Shown here: positions 30,425 to 42,774 of the stretch, piece by piece
Numbering within the stretch: position 1 is the first letter of the stretch
Layout of the letters: each line of letters opens with the position of its first letter
Origin: a virus
Strand: one strand, 5' to 3'
DNA: 64,000 nt
IMG/VR virus record: IMGVR_UViG_3300037511_000125
Location: 1 to 64,000 of that record
Notes under the pieces: model-generated
What the model was told of the DNA's origin: nothing
Database searches by the model: none
The model's input: the letters and a program-made list of their open reading frames with translations, nothing else
Made by a program: the position numbers and the translations under genes

Positions 30425-30607
30425 ATGAACATCCCGAAGAATCTTGATCTGCGCCACGTCGAAACCGCACTGGCGCCTAGCGAACGACTCGCCGCGATCA
30501 ACGAGAACAAGCGCCTGCAAGCAATCCGCGCGCTTGGCAATCGTTGGCTTCTGGCAAAGGACTATTGCAATCACTACGTGCCAATTCTCACCAAGAAGGT
30601 AGCGTGA
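30425..30607 (+). CDS. hypothetical small protein
   Basis: MNIPKNLDLRHVETALAPSERLAAINENKRLQ... Confidence 0.45.
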   Translation: MNIPKNLDLRHVETALAPSERLAAINENKRLQAIRALGNRWLLAKDYCNHYVPILTKKVA

Positions 30608-31302
30608 TGGCAAAAGAAATCATCGCGACTAGTGGTCACTCTATTCTCGTTGACGACTCGGATTTCGAGGAACTGAATAGATACAAATGGACTGTGAATA
30701 TTACGGGCCATGCGGCAAGAAAGATTCGCGTAGAAGCTTCCACGTACAAACGCATCTGGATTGGCATGCACCGCCAGATCATGGGCCTTCCTGCAGGGAC
30801 GCGGGGCAAGGATGGTCACATCGAAGTTGACCACATCAATGGCGATCGCCTTGATAACCGGCGAAGTAATCTTAGAGCTTGCACGCGACAGCAGAATGTC
30901 CTCAACAGACGGGGAAGCAGCAGAACTGGCTTTAAAGGCGTGACACAGCAAGCCAAAACAGGACTTTTTTGCGCTGAAATACGTGTCGGCGCAATCAGAA
31001 AACATCTCGGGTCTTACCAGACTGCCGAAGAGGCGCATGAGGTTTATTGCTTATGGGCCGACATGCTGCATGGCGAATTTGCGAATCATGAGCACAACCA
31101 GCAGGCAAACGCTCGTGCGCATAACGTTATTGAGAAGGTGATGCGGGAACCGAGAGTATCGCTCTCAGACGCAAATCAAATTCGCGATCTAAGAGGGACT
31201 CTTACCGTTCACGAGGTGGCGAAACGATTTGGCATAGCTGCTTCTTATGTTTATGCGATATGGAGTGGCCGTAGCAGGAAGGATACGGGGGTTAAGGCAT
31301 GA
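30607..31302 (+). CDS. HNH endonuclease with AP2 and HTH domains (homing-type)
   Basis: HIEVDHINGDRLDNRRSNLR is an HNH_3 motif. GFKGVTQ...LGSYQTAEEAHEVY is an AP2 motif. Lower GC. Confidence 0.8.
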   Translation: MAKEIIATSGHSILVDDSDFEELNRYKWTVNITGHAARKIRVEASTYKRIWIGMHRQIMGLPAGTRGKDGHIEVDHINGDRLDNRRSNLRACTRQQNVLNRRGSSRTGFKGVTQQAKTGLFCAEIRVGAIRKHLGSYQTAEEAHEVYCLWADMLHGEFANHEHNQQANARAHNVIEKVMREPRVSLSDANQIRDLRGTLTVHEVAKRFGIAASYVYAIWSGRSRKDTGVKA

Positions 31303-31897: not shown

Positions 31898-32262
31898 CCA
31901 CCGAAACCAAGCCTCTGTCCTGCATCGTCATCAAAGACCTTGGGCGCTACAACTTCGCATCCAACGAGAAGCAATGGAACGTTCAGGTTCTCATGCCTGA
32001 CGGCAAGTGGCTATCCGAGAAGTGGAATGAAGACGACGAACCCGCAATCGAAGGGGAGCCGCCGAGCGAAGTCATTGCGATGATTGAGGCGAGGATCAAG
32101 TCCTATTGGATTTGCACGCGACGCGAAGAAACACTGGCCCGCATCGAAAGCTTCCGCCACATGTTCCCGCAAATGGATGACGCATGGGCGCGCAAGCAGA
32201 TCGAATCGCTTGAGTGGCGGATTTCGTCGCTGCGGGATTATCTGATTGAGGAAGAAGAATGA
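31894..32262 (+). CDS. hypothetical protein
   Basis: 122-aa coupled ORF. Confidence 0.55.
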   Translation: MTTETKPLSCIVIKDLGRYNFASNEKQWNVQVLMPDGKWLSEKWNEDDEPAIEGEPPSEVIAMIEARIKSYWICTRREETLARIESFRHMFPQMDDAWARKQIESLEWRISSLRDYLIEEEE

Positions 32263-33278
32263 GCAACGCGCTCCAAGTCATCACCAACGAGATTTACGGC
32301 GTTCGAACCAGTTTCGAGGCCGTAAGTGTTGACCGCTCAATAAACTTTGAGCGGGAAGCCGGATTCGCGATCCAGATGATTTCCGGCAACGACTACGCGC
32401 TCACGCAGGCGATGAACAACAAGCAGTCTGTCATCGACGCTGTGACGAACGTTGCCGCCATCGGGATCAGCCTGAACCCGGCCAAGAAGCAAGCCTATCT
32501 CGTTCCGCGCAAGGGCAAGATTTGCTTGGACATCAGTTACATGGGCTTGATCGACCTCGCCATTCAGGACGGCGGGATCAAGTGGGCGCAGGCGCAACTG
32601 GTGTACGAGAAAGACACGTTCGCGCTCAACGGCATGGATAAATTACCGCTGCACCAGTTCAACCCGTTCGCGAAGGATCGCGGGGAGATCGTAGGTGTGT
32701 ACGTGGTCGTGAAGACGGCTGACGGCGAGTATCTGACGCACACGATGGATATCGATGCGGCCTACGCGATCCGCGACCGCTCTGAATCGTGGAAGCGGAA
32801 CCAACCCGGCAAGCGCGGACCGTGGGAAACCGATCCCGGCGAGATGATCAAGAAAACGTGCGTGAAGCAAGCGTACAAGTATTGGCCGAAGACCGATAGG
32901 CTGAACAAGGCAATCCATTTTCTTGACACCGAAGGCGGGGAGGGTGTCGAGCCGATCCAGCAGCGCAACGAATGCCCCTCTGATCTGCTCACCGCATGGT
33001 GTGACAAGGCGAAGACCGCGCCGAACGCCGACGCGCTCAGCAAAGTCTGGACGGATGGCCTTGCAGTCATCAAGCCGACCAAGGACATGCGTGCTTACAA
33101 CACGTTCAAGGAAACAGTTTCCGCGCGTGGCAATGAGTTGAAGAAGCCGGCCGCCGCCGATGCCAACACGATCGACGTGCAGGCAAAGGAAGTGCCGAGC
33201 CGCGAACCCGGTTCGGATGACGCAGAGTTGCAGGCAGATTTTGAACGCCAGATGGCGAAAGAAGGGGCGTCGCAATGA
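32259..33278 (+). CDS. recT: RecT-family single-strand annealing protein
   Basis: ...[36 protein letters not shown]... is the RecT core. Confidence 0.85.
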
Positions 33279-33931
33279 TCCTTATCGAGGCGATCCAGGG
33301 CACCCAGGAATGGTTGCAGGCTCGAAGTGGCGTGATTACCGCGTCGCGCATCTCCGACGCAATCTCGGTGCTTCAACGGAAATCAGGCTCAAAGAATCCG
33401 GGCGATCCGACAAACGAGTCGGATAAGTATGCGTACGAGGTCGCTTTTGAGCGCATCAGCGGTGTCCCCTATGCTGCGCCCATCAAAGCATTCACACTCG
33501 AGCGTGGGCACACCTTGGAGCCCGTCGCGCGGATGCTGTACGAGGAACGCACCGGCAATCTCGCAATGGAGTCGGGCATCGTTCTGTCCGACGACCGAAA
33601 GTTCGGGTACTCAACGGACGGGTTCCTGAACGACGATCGCGGCATCATCGAAATCAAATGCCCGGTTGATACGGTCAAGATCATGGACATGCTTACGACT
33701 GGCGACACGTCGGAGTACGACCATCAGATCCAGTTCGGACTTTTCCTGACTGGCCGCGCTTACTGCGATTTCATCCAGTACGTGCCGGCACTCGAATCCG
33801 TTGGCCGCGACCTCTACGTCAAGCGCATTGAACGCAATGAGGAGTTTATCGAGGACATGGTTGCCAAGGTTCTCACGTTCGAAAAGCGCGTGACTGCATA
33901 CGAAACGTTGCTGCGAAAGCAAGCCGCCTAA
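33275..33931 (+). CDS. YqaJ/lambda-Exo-like 5'-3' exonuclease
   Basis: GTQEWLQARSGVITASRISDA... and ...IIEIKCP... are PD-(D/E)XK motifs. Coupled to recT. Confidence 0.8.
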   Translation: MILIEAIQGTQEWLQARSGVITASRISDAISVLQRKSGSKNPGDPTNESDKYAYEVAFERISGVPYAAPIKAFTLERGHTLEPVARMLYEERTGNLAMESGIVLSDDRKFGYSTDGFLNDDRGIIEIKCPVDTVKIMDMLTTGDTSEYDHQIQFGLFLTGRAYCDFIQYVPALESVGRDLYVKRIERNEEFIEDMVAKVLTFEKRVTAYETLLRKQAA

Positions 33932-34731: not shown

Positions 34732-34766
34732 CCCTCGCCTATTCGGCCAATTGTGATCTTGAGGAT

Positions 34767-35624
34767 ATGAATGAGCTGGCATTGTTCGCAGGCGCTGGTG
34801 GCGGGATTCTTGGCGGCCACTTGCTCGGATGGCGCACAGTCTGCGCCGTCGAATACAACGCCTATGCCCGAAGCGTATTACTGGCCCGACAAAACGACGG
34901 AACATTCCCGCCTTTCCCGATTTGGGATGATGTCCGAAGCTTTGACGGTCGACCGTGGCGAGGCTTTGTTGACGTGGTTTCTGGCGGGTTCCCGTGCCAA
35001 GACATCAGCGCAGCTGGACGCGGGGACGGTCTCGACGGTGAGCGAAGCGGGCTCTGGACGGAAATGGCTCGGATTATTGGCGAGGTTCGACCGCGATACG
35101 CGTACATGGAGAACTCCCCAATCCTCACTTCTAGAGGGCTCGGACGAGTTCTCGGAGACCTGGCCGCGATGGGGTTCGATGCGGAATGGGGAGTCTTGGG
35201 AGCGGCAGACTTTGGCGCCCATCACCAGCGAGATCGAATCTGGATTCTGGCCCACTCCGAACTGCGTAGGGTATCGGAGCGACGGGGAACTGCTGCTTCT
35301 GTCTCGCAAGTTGACTTCGCGCGAGGAGTATCTAGCGATGTCGGATCGGGCCTGCAACAGCAAGCGGGAACGGTTCTGGCCTACCCCGACCGTCGCAATG
35401 TCGAAGGGATCGAGCGAGGGCGCCCTGACACGCAAGACGGGGCGCAGCCGAGAGAACGACAGACTGGACTACGCAGTCGAGGGGAATGGCCGGAATGGCC
35501 GACTGAACCCGGAATGGATCGAGTGGTTAATGGGTTGGCCCATCGGGTGGACCGAATTAAAGCCCTTGGAAACGGCCAGGTACCGAGAGTGGCTGCAGCA
35601 GCATTCGATCTGCTCTCGCGCTGA
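34767..35624 (+). CDS. DNA (cytosine-5) methyltransferase, frame A
   Basis: Motif I LFAGAGGG, IV GGFPCQDIS, VI ENSP, VIII QRDRIWILA, X RIKALGNGQVP. The middle about 95 aa look low-quality (Arg-rich, low GC3). Confidence 0.75.
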   Translation: MNELALFAGAGGGILGGHLLGWRTVCAVEYNAYARSVLLARQNDGTFPPFPIWDDVRSFDGRPWRGFVDVVSGGFPCQDISAAGRGDGLDGERSGLWTEMARIIGEVRPRYAYMENSPILTSRGLGRVLGDLAAMGFDAEWGVLGAADFGAHHQRDRIWILAHSELRRVSERRGTAASVSQVDFARGVSSDVGSGLQQQAGTVLAYPDRRNVEGIERGRPDTQDGAQPRERQTGLRSRGEWPEWPTEPGMDRVVNGLAHRVDRIKALGNGQVPRVAAAAFDLLSR

Positions 35625-35634
35625 AGCAGCCTAA
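34771..35634 (+). CDS. alternate-frame ORF fully inside the methyltransferase gene, frame B
   Basis: 287 aa open. WPTP occurs twice, plus NPEWIEWLMGWPIGWT and TWPRWGSMRNGE. By hand count GC3 is higher than in frame A, and the GAGGA SD is better spaced for this ATG. Confidence 0.4.
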   Translation: MSWHCSQALVAGFLAATCSDGAQSAPSNTTPMPEAYYWPDKTTEHSRLSRFGMMSEALTVDRGEALLTWFLAGSRAKTSAQLDAGTVSTVSEAGSGRKWLGLLARFDRDTRTWRTPQSSLLEGSDEFSETWPRWGSMRNGESWERQTLAPITSEIESGFWPTPNCVGYRSDGELLLLSRKLTSREEYLAMSDRACNSKRERFWPTPTVAMSKGSSEGALTRKTGRSRENDRLDYAVEGNGRNGRLNPEWIEWLMGWPIGWTELKPLETARYREWLQQHSICSRAEAA

Positions 35635-35653: not shown

Positions 35654-35824
35654 CTAATAGGGAGGCTTGGCGCGTTGTATCAGCTTCCGTAGCCATTCGA
35701 GGCCGTAGGCATCGATCTTGGACCATTGATCCGCTGATAGGCGGATGGAGCGCTGGACAAGTTTCTGATCGTCGGGGAGCCTCGGGCGCCCGCCAGGGTG
35801 TTTGGGTTTGGGTTTCGTTTCCAT
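35654..35824 (-). CDS. 56-aa basic ORF (RHH-like?) antisense to the operon
   Basis: My translation: METKPKPKHPGGRPRLPDDQKLVQRSIRLSADQWSKIDAYGLEWLRKLIQRAKPPY. No clear SD. The start lies inside a 14-bp hairpin stem. Confidence 0.3.
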   Translation of the reverse strand: METKPKPKHPGGRPRLPDDQKLVQRSIRLSADQWSKIDAYGLEWLRKLIQRAKPPY

Positions 35825-35901
35825 GCGCCACATTGTACACGCTGTATTCGAATCACAGAAACATGTTGCGCATGGTTAGTTTATGAATCACAATAACAGA
35901 T

Positions 35902-36996
35902 ATGGAAATCGTCAAGACATTGAAGTTGCGTATCAAGGACAAGCACGCCACGGCGTTGCTTGCGATGGCTCGCGACGTCAATACTGTCTGGAATTTCTGC
36001 AACGAAACGCAATACCGCAGCCTGAGACGATACTGCAATCGACCCAAAACATGGTTGTCAGGCTTTGATCTCGAGAAGCTTGTTTCAGGGTTTGTGAAGT
36101 GCGAGAGTGTTTCAATCGGCTCATCCACAGCGCAAGAGACTTGCCAACAGTTTGCAAGGCGTCTAAGGCAGTTCAAGCGCCAGAAACTTCGGTGGCGCGT
36201 AAGTGATCGTCAGTCGCCCAGATATTCGCTTGGGTGGGTGCCGTTCAAGGCAACTGCCATCAAGTTCAAAAATGGGCAGTTGCACCTCAATGGAAAGAGC
36301 ATCGGCCTTTGGGATTCATATGGCCTTTCCAAGTATGAGCTTCGCGCCGGCAGCTTCAACGAAGACTCGCGCGGTCGCTGGTACGTGAACATCGCGGTCA
36401 AGGAAAAGGCCGCAGAGAAGCGTGTACCGGATGGCGCGACTTCGATCGGAATCGACCTCGGCCTTAAGACGATGGCGACATACAGCGACGGCACGAAGTT
36501 CGAAATGCCGCGCTGGTATCGACTCTCCGAACAGACGCTCGGAATCGCCCAGCGGGCGAACAAGAAACGCCGCGTTAAGGCTATCCACGCGAAGATCGCG
36601 AATCAGCGCAAGGACGCCATCCACAAGGAAACGTCCGCACTGGTGAAGAAGCATGCAGCAATCTTCGTAGGGAACGTGAACGCGAAAGCGCTGGCGAGAA
36701 CGAGCATGGCGAAATCCGTGCACGACGCCGCATGGACGATGTTCCGGACACAACTCAAGTTCAAGGCCATCAGGCATTGCGTGGTGTTCGAGGAAGTCAA
36801 CGAAGCGTTTTCATCCCAAACCTGTTCGAGTTGCGGAGCTTTGCCCGACTCGCGGCCGAGAGGTATCGCAGGACTTGGAATAAGAGAGTGGGCGTGCAGC
36901 GACTGTGGAGCGGTCCATGACCGGGATACAAACGCCGCACGAAACATTCTCCGCTTGGGGCATCAAGCGCTAGCGGTAGGAGCCTCGCACGTCTAG
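35902..36996 (+). CDS. tnpB: TnpB (RuvC-like RNA-guided nuclease, OrfB_IS605)
   Basis: ...IGIDLGLK... (RuvC-I), ...FEEVNEAFSSQTCSSCGALP...WACSDCGAVHDRDTNAARNI (zinc finger plus RuvC-III). Confidence 0.85.
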   Translation: MEIVKTLKLRIKDKHATALLAMARDVNTVWNFCNETQYRSLRRYCNRPKTWLSGFDLEKLVSGFVKCESVSIGSSTAQETCQQFARRLRQFKRQKLRWRVSDRQSPRYSLGWVPFKATAIKFKNGQLHLNGKSIGLWDSYGLSKYELRAGSFNEDSRGRWYVNIAVKEKAAEKRVPDGATSIGIDLGLKTMATYSDGTKFEMPRWYRLSEQTLGIAQRANKKRRVKAIHAKIANQRKDAIHKETSALVKKHAAIFVGNVNAKALARTSMAKSVHDAAWTMFRTQLKFKAIRHCVVFEEVNEAFSSQTCSSCGALPDSRPRGIAGLGIREWACSDCGAVHDRDTNAARNILRLGHQALAVGASHV

Positions 36997-41089: not shown

Positions 41090-41593
41090 ATGCCGCGCGC
41101 CGCACCGAATGACGGATTAACGACAAAGCAAAGATATTTCAAAAAGATGAGCGATGCAGCGCCAACAATTCTCTGCGCATGCGGGTGTGGCGGGTCGCTT
41201 AAGTCAGTCGATGCCTATGGCCGCCCCGCAACGTTCATCAATGGCCACAACGCGCGAAAGTACGAGGGCGAAGAATCGACCAAGTGGGCAGCCCAGAAGC
41301 GATACCGCACGAACAATCCCGATAAGCATCGGGACTACAAGCGTGAATATTATCGCGCTCGGAAACTTAAGGCGATGGAACTTCTGGGTAACAAATGTGA
41401 GTTGTGCGGAATCCCGTATAACGGGACTAACGCCCCCATTTTCGAATTTCATCATAGAAACCCGCACGAAAAAGAAGCTGGCGTTACCAGAATGCTAACC
41501 AATAAGGCTTGGGAGCAGGTCGTTCTGGAAATGACGAAATGCATTCTTGTGTGCGCCAATTGCCACAATCAACATCACGGAGGTGAGTGGTGA
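41090..41593 (+). CDS. HNH endonuclease
   Basis: ...CELCGIPY...FEFHHRNPHEK...LVCANCHNQHH. The upstream region is AT-rich. Confidence 0.8.
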   Translation: MPRAAPNDGLTTKQRYFKKMSDAAPTILCACGCGGSLKSVDAYGRPATFINGHNARKYEGEESTKWAAQKRYRTNNPDKHRDYKREYYRARKLKAMELLGNKCELCGIPYNGTNAPIFEFHHRNPHEKEAGVTRMLTNKAWEQVVLEMTKCILVCANCHNQHHGGEW

Positions 41594-42774
41594 AGCAGGT
41601 TATCAAGGAAGATGGGGCATCGCCCATCAAAATCTGGACCGATGACGTTGAGCAGAGCGCATTGGCCCAATTGAAGAGCATTGCCGGTCTGCCGTTTGTA
41701 TCGAAGCATGGCGTCGCAGTTATGCCTGACGTCCATGCCGGAATTGGGTCAACCGTTGGAAGCGTCGTGGCCACGGAAAAGGCAATCGTGCCTTCGATGG
41801 TCGGCGTGGACATCGGGTGCGGGATGAACGCCGTTCGCCTGTCGCTGAAGGCGTCCGAACTCCCCGACGATCTGAAGACGATCCGCCATCAGATTGAGCG
41901 AGACGTTCCGCTTGGAACGGGTGGGGCGCATCGCGACGACCGACAACCCGACATCCCTGTAGATCTGGCGGCGCGCTACACGCATATCGTCGATCAGCAC
42001 GCCGGGATTCTCAATAAGAACATGAACCGCCAGCTCGGCACATTGGGTAGCGGCAATCACTTCATCGAACTGTGCATCGACGAGGCGCAGGACGTTTGGG
42101 TGATGCTTCACAGTGGTTCGCGCGGCGTTGGCAATCTGATTGGCCGATACTTCATCGAGAAGGCGAAAAAGCGGATGGAGCAATACTTCATCAGCCTGCC
42201 GGATGGCGACTTGGCCTACTTCCCCGAAGACACCGACGATTTCCGCGATTACGTGAAGGCGGTGAACTGGGCGCAGGACTATGCGCTCGAAAACCGCCGC
42301 GTGATGATGGAAGCGGTGATCGCGGCGCTACGCCGACATATCCCCGTCGAATTCACAATTACTCAAGAGGCGATCAACTGCCATCACAACTACGTCGAGC
42401 GTGAAAACCACTTCGGCAAAAATCTCTGGGTGACGCGCAAGGGTGCAATTCGCGCTCGTGAAGGCGACCTTGGCATCATCCCGGGTTCGATGGGTCAACG
42501 CTCATACATCGTGCGCGGCAAGGGCAATCTGGAGTCGTACTGCTCATGTTCGCACGGGGCCGGTCGAAAGATGAGCCGTGCCGAGGCACGTCGTCGATTC
42601 CAGTTGTCCGATCTTGTCGCGCAGACTGAAGGCGTTGAGTGCCGCAAGGATGATGCGGTGCTGGACGAGATCCCCGGCGCGTACAAGCAGATTGACGAGG
42701 TGATGGCGAATCAGACGGACTTGGTTGAGGTCGTTCACGTCCTAAAGCAGTGCCTCTGCGTCAAGGGAGCCTGA
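41587..42774 (+). CDS. rtcB: RtcB RNA ligase (3'-phosphate/5'-OH)
   Basis: ...VGVDIGCGM..., ...LGSGNHFIELC..., ...HSGSRGVGN..., ...NCHHNY..., ...SCSHGAGR... are canonical RtcB metal/GMP motifs. Confidence 0.9.
   Translation: MVKQVIKEDGASPIKIWTDDVEQSALAQLKSIAGLPFVSKHGVAVMPDVHAGIGSTVGSVVATEKAIVPSMVGVDIGCGMNAVRLSLKASELPDDLKTIRHQIERDVPLGTGGAHRDDRQPDIPVDLAARYTHIVDQHAGILNKNMNRQLGTLGSGNHFIELCIDEAQDVWVMLHSGSRGVGNLIGRYFIEKAKKRMEQYFISLPDGDLAYFPEDTDDFRDYVKAVNWAQDYALENRRVMMEAVIAALRRHIPVEFTITQEAINCHHNYVERENHFGKNLWVTRKGAIRAREGDLGIIPGSMGQRSYIVRGKGNLESYCSCSHGAGRKMSRAEARRRFQLSDLVAQTEGVECRKDDAVLDEIPGAYKQIDEVMANQTDLVEVVHVLKQCLCVKGA

Follow-up and report, generated by a model that had tools for sequence, protein, structure and literature searches.

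A 64,000-nucleotide stretch of viral DNA (IMG/VR record IMGVR_UViG_3300037511_000125, positions 1 to 64,000; hereafter the window) carries a DNA (cytosine-5) methyltransferase (C5-MTase) gene that is open in two reading frames of the same strand. According to the list of open reading frames (ORFs), frame A extends from 34767 to 35624 (+), with its ATG at 34767 and a TGA at 35622-35624 (285 aa), and frame B, which is the +1 frame of A, extends from 34771 to 35634 (+), with its ATG at 34771 and a TAA at 35632-35634 (287 aa, stop-free). The start of B is located 4 nt past the start of A and its end lies 10 nt past the A stop. That two frames stay open over ~860 nt had been claimed in the original prediction, which was made from the letters of the sequence, and was borne out by the sequence and the ORF list. 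The predicted spacing of a Shine-Dalgarno-like GAGGA (34761-34765, +), which is apparently common to both starts, was likewise found by direct reading: it lies 1 nt upstream of the A ATG and 5 nt upstream of the B ATG. The GC content of the gene is 0.60, and the GC content of third codon positions (GC3) is 0.57 overall in frame A (0.61, 0.55, 0.56, and 0.45 by region) and 0.71 overall in frame B (0.68-0.77). The RecT gene of the same genome gave 0.76, and RecT, the RecE-like gene, and RtcB together gave 0.71-0.76; GC3 values counted by hand for the original prediction agree with the computed ones.

Frame A contains the large-domain motifs of a C5-MTase on the plus strand: motif I (FAGAGGG, 34785-34805), motif IV (GFPCQD, 34986-35003), motif VI (ENSP, 35109-35120), and motif VIII (QRDRIW, 35226-35243), which represent the family patterns FxGxG, PCQ, ENV, and QxRxR, respectively, within 34785-35243. 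Motif X (GNGQVP, 35568-35585, pattern GNxxxP) and the C-terminal helix were recognized by motif pattern and structure model, the Pfam match ending earlier. These motifs, like those of frame B described below, were all found where they had been predicted. In Pfam, A matched PF00145 with an E-value of 2.1e-29, limited to aa 4-169, and its score against TIGR00675 was 75, below the cut-off of 100.65; aa 4-169 is all that these two models cover. Among the PHROG families the match was phrog_363 (4.8e-68), and the sequence of M.HhaI was matched at 4.9e-12. Searches carried out separately with the two translations, a check that the original prediction had proposed, returned at least 8,000 homologues of A, whose NCBI name is DNA cytosine methyltransferase, and 6,818 scored homologues of B.

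In an alignment of 120 homologues, aa 1-165 of A (34767-35261, +), which include motifs I, IV, VI, and VIII and show frame-A selection, were highly conserved; aa 166-243 (35262-35495, +) were unalignable and variable in length, and aa 244-285 were conserved. The C-terminal block (35520-35621, +) consists, by alignment and model, of RVVNGLAHRVDRIK (35520-35561), motif X, and the terminal helix, and the motif X residues G268, N269, and Q271 were invariant in this set. The AlphaFold model of A, for which this alignment served as input, had predicted local distance difference test (pLDDT) values of 88-97 over most of aa 1-170, falling to 60-80 near aa 71-100; the values were 41-54 over aa 171-270 (below 50 in the linker) and 88-94 over aa 270-285, where the C-terminal helix (aa 271-284) follows motif X. 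The central part of A, which had been described as junk-like in the original prediction, would be a translated linker; it is predicted to be disordered and has no frame-A constraint, as is consistent with its unalignable sequence and its pLDDT below 50. A Foldseek search with the A model found M.HaeIII (5.8e-14) and M.HhaI over ~170 residues with a target-normalized template modeling (TM) score of ~0.45, which corresponds to the large domain only. No target recognition domain (TRD) and motif IX were found between motifs VIII and X in the A polypeptide, aa 166-243 being unalignable and disordered; the sole conserved TRD/IX-like sequence at the locus is in frame B. Considering the alignment, the AlphaFold model, and the Foldseek match confined to the large domain, we concluded that A represents a whole large domain devoid of a TRD and motif IX. 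The modeling shows that A has the predicted large-domain fold of C5-MTases and that A alone would be incomplete.

Frame B begins with a leader (aa 1-94; 34771-35052, +), which is overprinted on motifs I-IV of A and weakly constrained. It is followed by a core (aa 95-262; 35053-35556, +) that forms the conserved part of the B alignment and contains the GxKW..YD..SW.T.Q.SLL block, TWPRWGSMRNGE (35158-35193, +), two WPTP modules (35248-35259 and 35377-35388, +), and LNPEWIEWLMGWPIGWT (35503-35553, +), a motif IX-like block of the form LNPxWxEWLMGWP. Across the family, four parts can be distinguished in the alignment: the leader of aa 1-94, the conserved core, a variable count of WPTP modules, and LNPxWxEWLMGWPIGxT followed by LKPLE..F.EW.QQH. 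The WPTP modules come and go as B-frame units. The scored homologues had 50-83% identity over 97-100% of the length and were nearly all metagenome calls named "hypothetical", and the family comprised 16,052 clusters at 50% identity (E up to 1e-3). B was found together with this Dcm in each locus examined, and none of the best hits was a single-chain relative carrying a small domain of the B type; there were only dual-frame loci and three singleton proteins that switch frame. In the PHROG collection, B matched phrog_1008, "DNA methyltransferase", at 1e-23 and phrog_26627 at 1e-18, which agrees with the origin of the frame-B motifs in phage methylase-type proteins that the original prediction had suggested; the database proteins of the phrog_1008 type, in turn, derive from frame B of loci organized in this way.

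The B family was aligned by hhalign with 10 canonical C5-MTases, which gave a P of 0.012, a score that 1 of 150 column-shuffled controls reached. In this alignment, B residues 202-257 were placed colinear with the TRD element "PT(L/I)TA" and motif IX (RRLTPRECxRLxGFP), the second WPTP module pairing with the TRD element and LNPxWxEWLMGWP with motif IX. The same placement was obtained, without significance, against E. coli Dcm alone and M.HhaI alone. No C-terminal PF00145 match was detected by Pfam in an artificial A-B-A chimera, nor in the natural B proteins that carry both motif IX and motif X (P0055, L122, and L150, see below). The putative assignment of B as TRD plus motif IX is thus supported but not proven by the profile alignment.

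The organization of the locus was analyzed in a sample of 160 loci, to which IMG/VR and GTDB genomes contributed 80 each, with a GC content of 0.46-0.69; Pseudomonas, Acinetobacter, Paraburkholderia, Akkermansia, Leptospira, Treponema, Verrucomicrobiota, Planctomycetota, and Patescibacteria are among the sampled genomes. In nearly all loci, the N-terminal and C-terminal blocks of A shared one frame and the B blocks were in the +1 frame. The expected number of stops was determined by synonymous resampling of the A codons from each gene's own usage, which is already biased and makes the estimate conservative, and only interior codons were counted. There was no interior +1 stop in 146 of 161 loci, against ~4.4 stops expected (median P(open) 0.007), and P(open) was ~0.002 for loci with a GC content of 0.40-0.50; the +2 frame of the loci contained ~14.5 stops. 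Analyses by segment and of entropy were carried out on 149 non-redundant loci, 8 aberrant loci having been left out beforehand. Over A codons 2-92, which correspond to the leader, the B frame had 0 stops against 1.2 expected and was open in 149/149 loci, and over A codons 2-165 it had 0 stops against 2.9 expected. Conversely, when the B codons were resampled synonymously, the A frame over the centre had 0 stops against 2.8 expected and was also open in 149/149. Cultured phages have this two-frame organization as well, with one protein annotated: A in Acinetobacter phage ABMM1, Mycobacterium phage SG4, Synechococcus phage S-H1, and Microbacterium phage R1, and B in Pseudomonas phage phPA-G and Stenotrophomonas phage SOVA965. 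Among 5,426 E. coli genomes, the family was present in 4, in a prophage setting, where the Prokaryotic Genome Annotation Pipeline (PGAP) annotates A only; no restriction gene was annotated beside the family members in these 4 genomes.

The start region has the consensus NTGAATGAGYTGGC across the loci, and a B ATG at +4 was found in 133 of them. Asn2 of A is always encoded by AAT because of this overlapping ATG, while AAC accounts for 59% of the Asn codons in flanking genes. The start codon of A was ATG in 61, GTG in 38, and TTG in 18 loci, and ~16 loci had a non-start codon at this position; those of the ~16 that were inspected have an ATG for A three codons farther upstream. The last Shine-Dalgarno-like 4-mer mostly ended 3-5 nt before the A start, that is, 7-9 nt before the B ATG. 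In the loci without the start consensus ("LRELALF" type), both frames are open farther upstream. From these sequence features we infer that two initiation events would be served by one ribosome-binding site.

Entropy at the three codon positions of A showed in which frame each segment is conserved; A position 1 equals B position 3, and a frame-B pattern means that the third position of B is the most variable. Over aa 2-165 of A, the entropy was 0.5-0.9, 0.4-0.6, and 1.2-1.3 bits at positions 1, 2, and 3, respectively, a frame-A pattern. Over aa 166-243 the values were 1.78, 1.53, and 1.61 (frame-B pattern, 15 alignable columns only), over aa 244-262 they were 1.01, 0.66, and 0.60 (frame-B pattern, low at all three positions), and over aa 263-285 they were 0.85, 0.70, and 1.36 (frame-A pattern). 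Beneath the LNPxWxEWLMGWP block of B, the four-fold sites of conserved A residues had an entropy of 0.08 bit, and those of the N region had 1.43 bit against ~1.96 expected. Scoring synonymous-site conservation in each frame had been proposed in the original prediction; the nearly invariant four-fold sites in the IX zone and the A-B-A succession of codon-position patterns bear on this point. Several A codons were near-fixed (A10 GCT 84%, F50 TTC 94%, V68 GTT 86%, P118 CCA 81%, and G136 GGG 99%), and at the conserved A columns of aa 1-92 the commonest codon had a frequency of 0.62 against 0.34 expected from flanking long ORFs, which are only an approximate control of codon usage. The entropy and four-fold-site results indicated that the core of B is under strong selection and its leader under weak to moderate selection. 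Conserved Gly codons of A (34767-35261) strongly favor GGA (0.5-0.74, the flanking genes having 0.23), a choice that places Glu or Asp in the B leader; it may reflect selection for an acidic or disordered leader or another constraint on the nucleotides.

Two spots are constrained in both frames. At 35226-35259 (+), motif VIII of A (QRDRIWIL) lies over SGFWPTP of B, and residues are conserved in both proteins: R155, R157, and W159 of A and G158 of B are invariant, and W160, T162, and P163 of B are at least 90% conserved. At 35503-35561 (+), the motif IX-like block of B lies over RVVNGLAHRVDRIK of A, and the entropy is low at all codon positions. Judged by the sequences, chance does not account for the openness of the two frames, and each of them shows purifying selection on its own amino acids. 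Of the three explanations offered in the original prediction, that of a genuine overprinted gene pair is the one that fits, since both frames are open in ~146/161 loci and each is selected in its own segments.

Natural variants of the locus differ in the extent of B and in the position of motif X. The most distant relatives, L151 and L160, and phages SG4 and S-H1 have a +1 frame that is closed at the 5′ end, with B as an internal ORF of 156, 209, 202, and 218 aa, respectively. The internal B starts just before the GxKW block in L151 and farther upstream in L160, SG4, and S-H1. These leader-less B ORFs indicate that the leader is dispensable in some lineages. The SG4 (gp64, L162 1431-2243) and S-H1 (L164 897-1712) genes belong to another Dcm subfamily, of the LFSGIGGLELGLERAG type, with a B-type ORF in +1, which extends the split two-frame design to phages of Actinobacteria and Cyanobacteria, beyond the subfamily of the window. 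A ends soon after motif VIII in L122, L150 (a Paraburkholderia isolate), and P0055, and B there carries both motifs IX and X: it runs past the IX block into an in-frame motif X, RxxRI(K/R)ALGNGQVP. The occurrence of motif X on either polypeptide is sensible only if A and B belong to a single enzyme. In L150 (2424-3941, Paraburkholderia adhaesiva), A has 168 aa and ends directly after motif VIII, and the +1 open stretch has 505 aa with six WPTP-type modules, the IX block, and motif X; such a gain of modules may be a route to new specificities. Finally, three singleton proteins, P0248, P0258, and P0297, change mid-chain between A-type and B-type sequence. None of them restores the canonical order of motifs I-VIII, TRD, IX, and X, and they are most likely indel errors, or else rare natural fusions.

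Among the characterized C5-MTases, M.EcoHK31I and M.AquI are the two-polypeptide exceptions (PMC2836561, PMC3404938), and a literature search for an earlier description of the window family found only these two. M.EcoHK31I of E. coli HK31, which recognizes YGGCCR, is a heterodimer whose β subunit is encoded wholly within another frame of the α gene; α contains motifs I-VIII, X, and the predicted TRD, β contains motif IX, and activity needs association of the chains (PMC2836561, PMC3404938). In M.AquI, which is split in the variable region, α contains motifs I-VIII and β contains part of the TRD and motifs IX-X (PMC3404938). The M.EcoHK31I type is characterized by a second polypeptide in an alternative frame, and B, in the +1 frame and open in the same 146 of 161 loci, is such a polypeptide. 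Compared by its published description, M.EcoHK31I resembles the window locus in that the large subunit A also carries motifs I-VIII plus X, and its layout of a short β inside α is shared by L151, L160, SG4, and S-H1. In contrast to M.EcoHK31I, B of the window is co-extensive with A, has a twin start, and ends 10 nt beyond A, so it is not nested. It also has a leader of ~90 aa overprinted on motifs I-IV, and conserved recognition-type modules are found in B, whereas the predicted TRD of M.EcoHK31I is in α. Moreover, the window gene is a phage orphan methylase without an adjacent restriction gene. The motif distribution of M.AquI is seen in the relatives L122, L150, and P0055, while in the window motif X is on A and not on the second polypeptide; even in the AquI-like relatives, B spans the whole A gene in +1 instead of following it.

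The monomeric C5-MTases of PF00145 (M.HhaI, M.HaeIII, and E. coli Dcm) have the fold of the large domain and motifs I, IV, VI, VIII, and X in common with the window gene, but the presumed small domain of the window enzyme is in another polypeptide and another frame. Long overprinted gene pairs on the same strand are known from small phages and viruses, for example, phiX174, with genes inside other genes. Set beside such pairs, the window locus would likewise yield two proteins from the same nucleotides in different frames; it differs in that its products would be complementary enzyme halves, the overlap covers ~100% of both genes (~285 codons), and phages of several bacterial phyla have conserved this overlap. 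The principle is known, and the architecture and the scale seen here appear to have been unappreciated.

Considering these results, we regard it as highly probable that the locus encodes an obligate two-subunit phage DNA (cytosine-5) methyltransferase, the subunits of which would be specified by two co-extensive frames. Ribosomes recruited by one Shine-Dalgarno site would start either at the ATG at 34767, to make A, or at the ATG at 34771, to make B. Protein A would provide the large domain, with motifs I-VIII, a floppy linker of ~80 aa that needs only to be free of stops, and motif X, which would fold back on the N-terminal domain. Protein B would consist of the weakly constrained leader of ~90 aa and a small domain formed by the WPTP recognition modules and the motif IX-like helix. 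A and B would assemble non-covalently into an active enzyme that methylates phage DNA, presumably against host restriction. The use of both starts, the role of B as TRD plus motif IX, the heterodimer, and the enzyme activity are all put forward here from sequence comparisons.

Several observations weigh against this interpretation. In the window, the Shine-Dalgarno sequence is just 1 nt from the A ATG, and initiation of A may consequently be inefficient or work differently. B had no match in Pfam, NCBIfam, the PDB sequence profile search, or Foldseek, its AlphaFold monomer model was poor (mean pLDDT 56, leader below 50, best at aa 171-200), and the assignment of motif IX in B rests on a P of ~0.01. 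The weak constraint on the leader means that the need for it could be purely translational. L090 (at ~3040, in the linker) and L106 (at ~2935, just before motif VIII), both from metagenome-assembled genomes, have one in-frame stop in A with B intact; these stops could reflect pseudogenes, assembly errors, or recoding. A frameshifted fusion might also be made as an additional product.

Frameshifting could in principle account for the whole locus: a programmed +1 shift from A to B near 35248 and a −1 shift from B back to A at TTA-AAG near 35557 would give a single product with motifs I-VIII, TRD, IX, and X. The selected segments do run exactly A, B, A, and at 35558-35561 frame B reads "A AAG", a pattern known to be shift-prone in E. 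coli, but its presence is uninformative because it arises automatically from the Lys(AAA)-Ala of A. We consider this double shift improbable. It does not explain why the segments that it would leave unused, B upstream of 35248 and A at 35262-35495, are stop-free throughout the non-redundant loci, nor does shifting require the conserved ATG at +4. There is no +1 shift signal at the first junction and no independent signal, no shift is needed in the variants whose B ORF is internal or whose motif X lies in frame B, and at both junctions (35226-35259 and 35503-35561) the conserved block of one frame overlaps that of the other, so that a clean frame switch has no room. The single methylase with shifts near 35260 and 35555 that the original prediction had listed was thus right about the points at which selection switches between the frames, whereas shifting itself is not needed and would leave the open segments and the B ATG unexplained. 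The view that B is a real protein other than a methyltransferase subunit, for example, a regulator or a protein with another phage function, draws on the weak likeness to motif IX and on the fact that B matches no curated family and no solved structure significantly. It appears unlikely, though somewhat less so than the double shift, as A without a conserved TRD or motif IX would then be an incomplete enzyme, motif X moves onto B in L122, L150, and P0055, B accompanies this Dcm wherever the locus was examined, and M.EcoHK31I provides a precedent.

It is still less probable that frame B is an untranslated and mis-called by-product, kept open by composition and passive conservation, even though the GC content of the gene is as high as 0.60, the N-terminal two-thirds vary in the frame-A pattern, and most B entries are metagenome calls named "hypothetical". 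The frame is open even in the loci of low GC content (0.46-0.50), the ATG at +4 is fixed, and gain and loss of WPTP modules take place in B-frame units; variation in the centre and the IX zone follows frame B, and there the four-fold sites of A are invariant and the A sequence is unconserved. Decay of the gene, which was the remaining explanation of the original prediction, or indels in the assembly could be seen in the rare frame-switching singletons P0248, P0258, and P0297 and in the A stops of L090 and L106, but can scarcely be credited for the locus as a whole, since more than 140 independent loci, among them those of complete isolate genomes and of cultured phages, have the identical two-frame organization. 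The obligate two-subunit methyltransferase encoded in two frames therefore remains the interpretation that we prefer.

The methylase gene is preceded by genes for an HNH endonuclease (30544-31302, +), a RecT-like annealing protein (32259-33278, +), and a RecE-like exonuclease (33275-33931, +), which indicate that the region is a phage early/recombination module. Downstream, a TnpB/IS605-OrfB-like transposase of 364 aa (35902-36996, +; phrog_506, 3.6e-67) is encoded within this module, its ORF starting 268 nt past the methylase. Between the two genes, a 59-aa ORF beginning with MWRMETKPKPKHPGGRPRLPDDQKLVQRSIRL lies on the minus strand (35654-35833); by eye it looks like a small DNA-binding protein of the ribbon-helix-helix type, and it had no PHROG match. 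Farther downstream, an RtcB-like RNA ligase (41587-42774, +; phrog_1075, 1.1e-150) could serve tRNA repair as a counter-defence. A megablast search with the 24000-46000 part of the window gave no match among 50,697 phage records.

Annotation pipelines call only one frame of such loci, which is named "DNA cytosine methyltransferase" if it is A and "hypothetical protein" if it is B, with the consequence that thousands of phage and prophage methylases of 240-330 aa without a recognition domain are annotated as the whole enzyme, and the presumed specificity subunit B is left without a family model. If B is ignored, specificity prediction, heterologous expression, and the interpretation of phage methylomes and anti-restriction would fail. 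Few same-strand dual-coding regions of phage and bacterial DNA are as long and as widely conserved as this one, and its natural intermediates, with an internal B or with motif X on either chain, make the route from a single-chain enzyme to an overprinted heterodimer testable. For targeted methylation, scaffolds are sought among natural heterodimeric C5-MTases (PMC2836561), and the family of the window, as far as its sequences tell, would supply thousands of them. Taken as a whole, the wider reading, in which the co-extensive layout with twin starts is an undescribed and very widespread way of encoding an obligate heterodimeric enzyme, is advanced tentatively and has, in our estimate, clearly less than an even chance of holding in all its parts. 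If it is true, the choice of start codon would set the ratio of the subunits, and the B leader, written over the catalytic motifs I-IV, would represent a de novo peptide that has a role of its own, such as docking onto A. Most of the small phage "orphan Dcm" genes in the databases would then be mis-annotated as single-subunit enzymes, and the B family, with more than 16,000 clusters at 50% identity and no Pfam model, would be their missing major specificity subunit.

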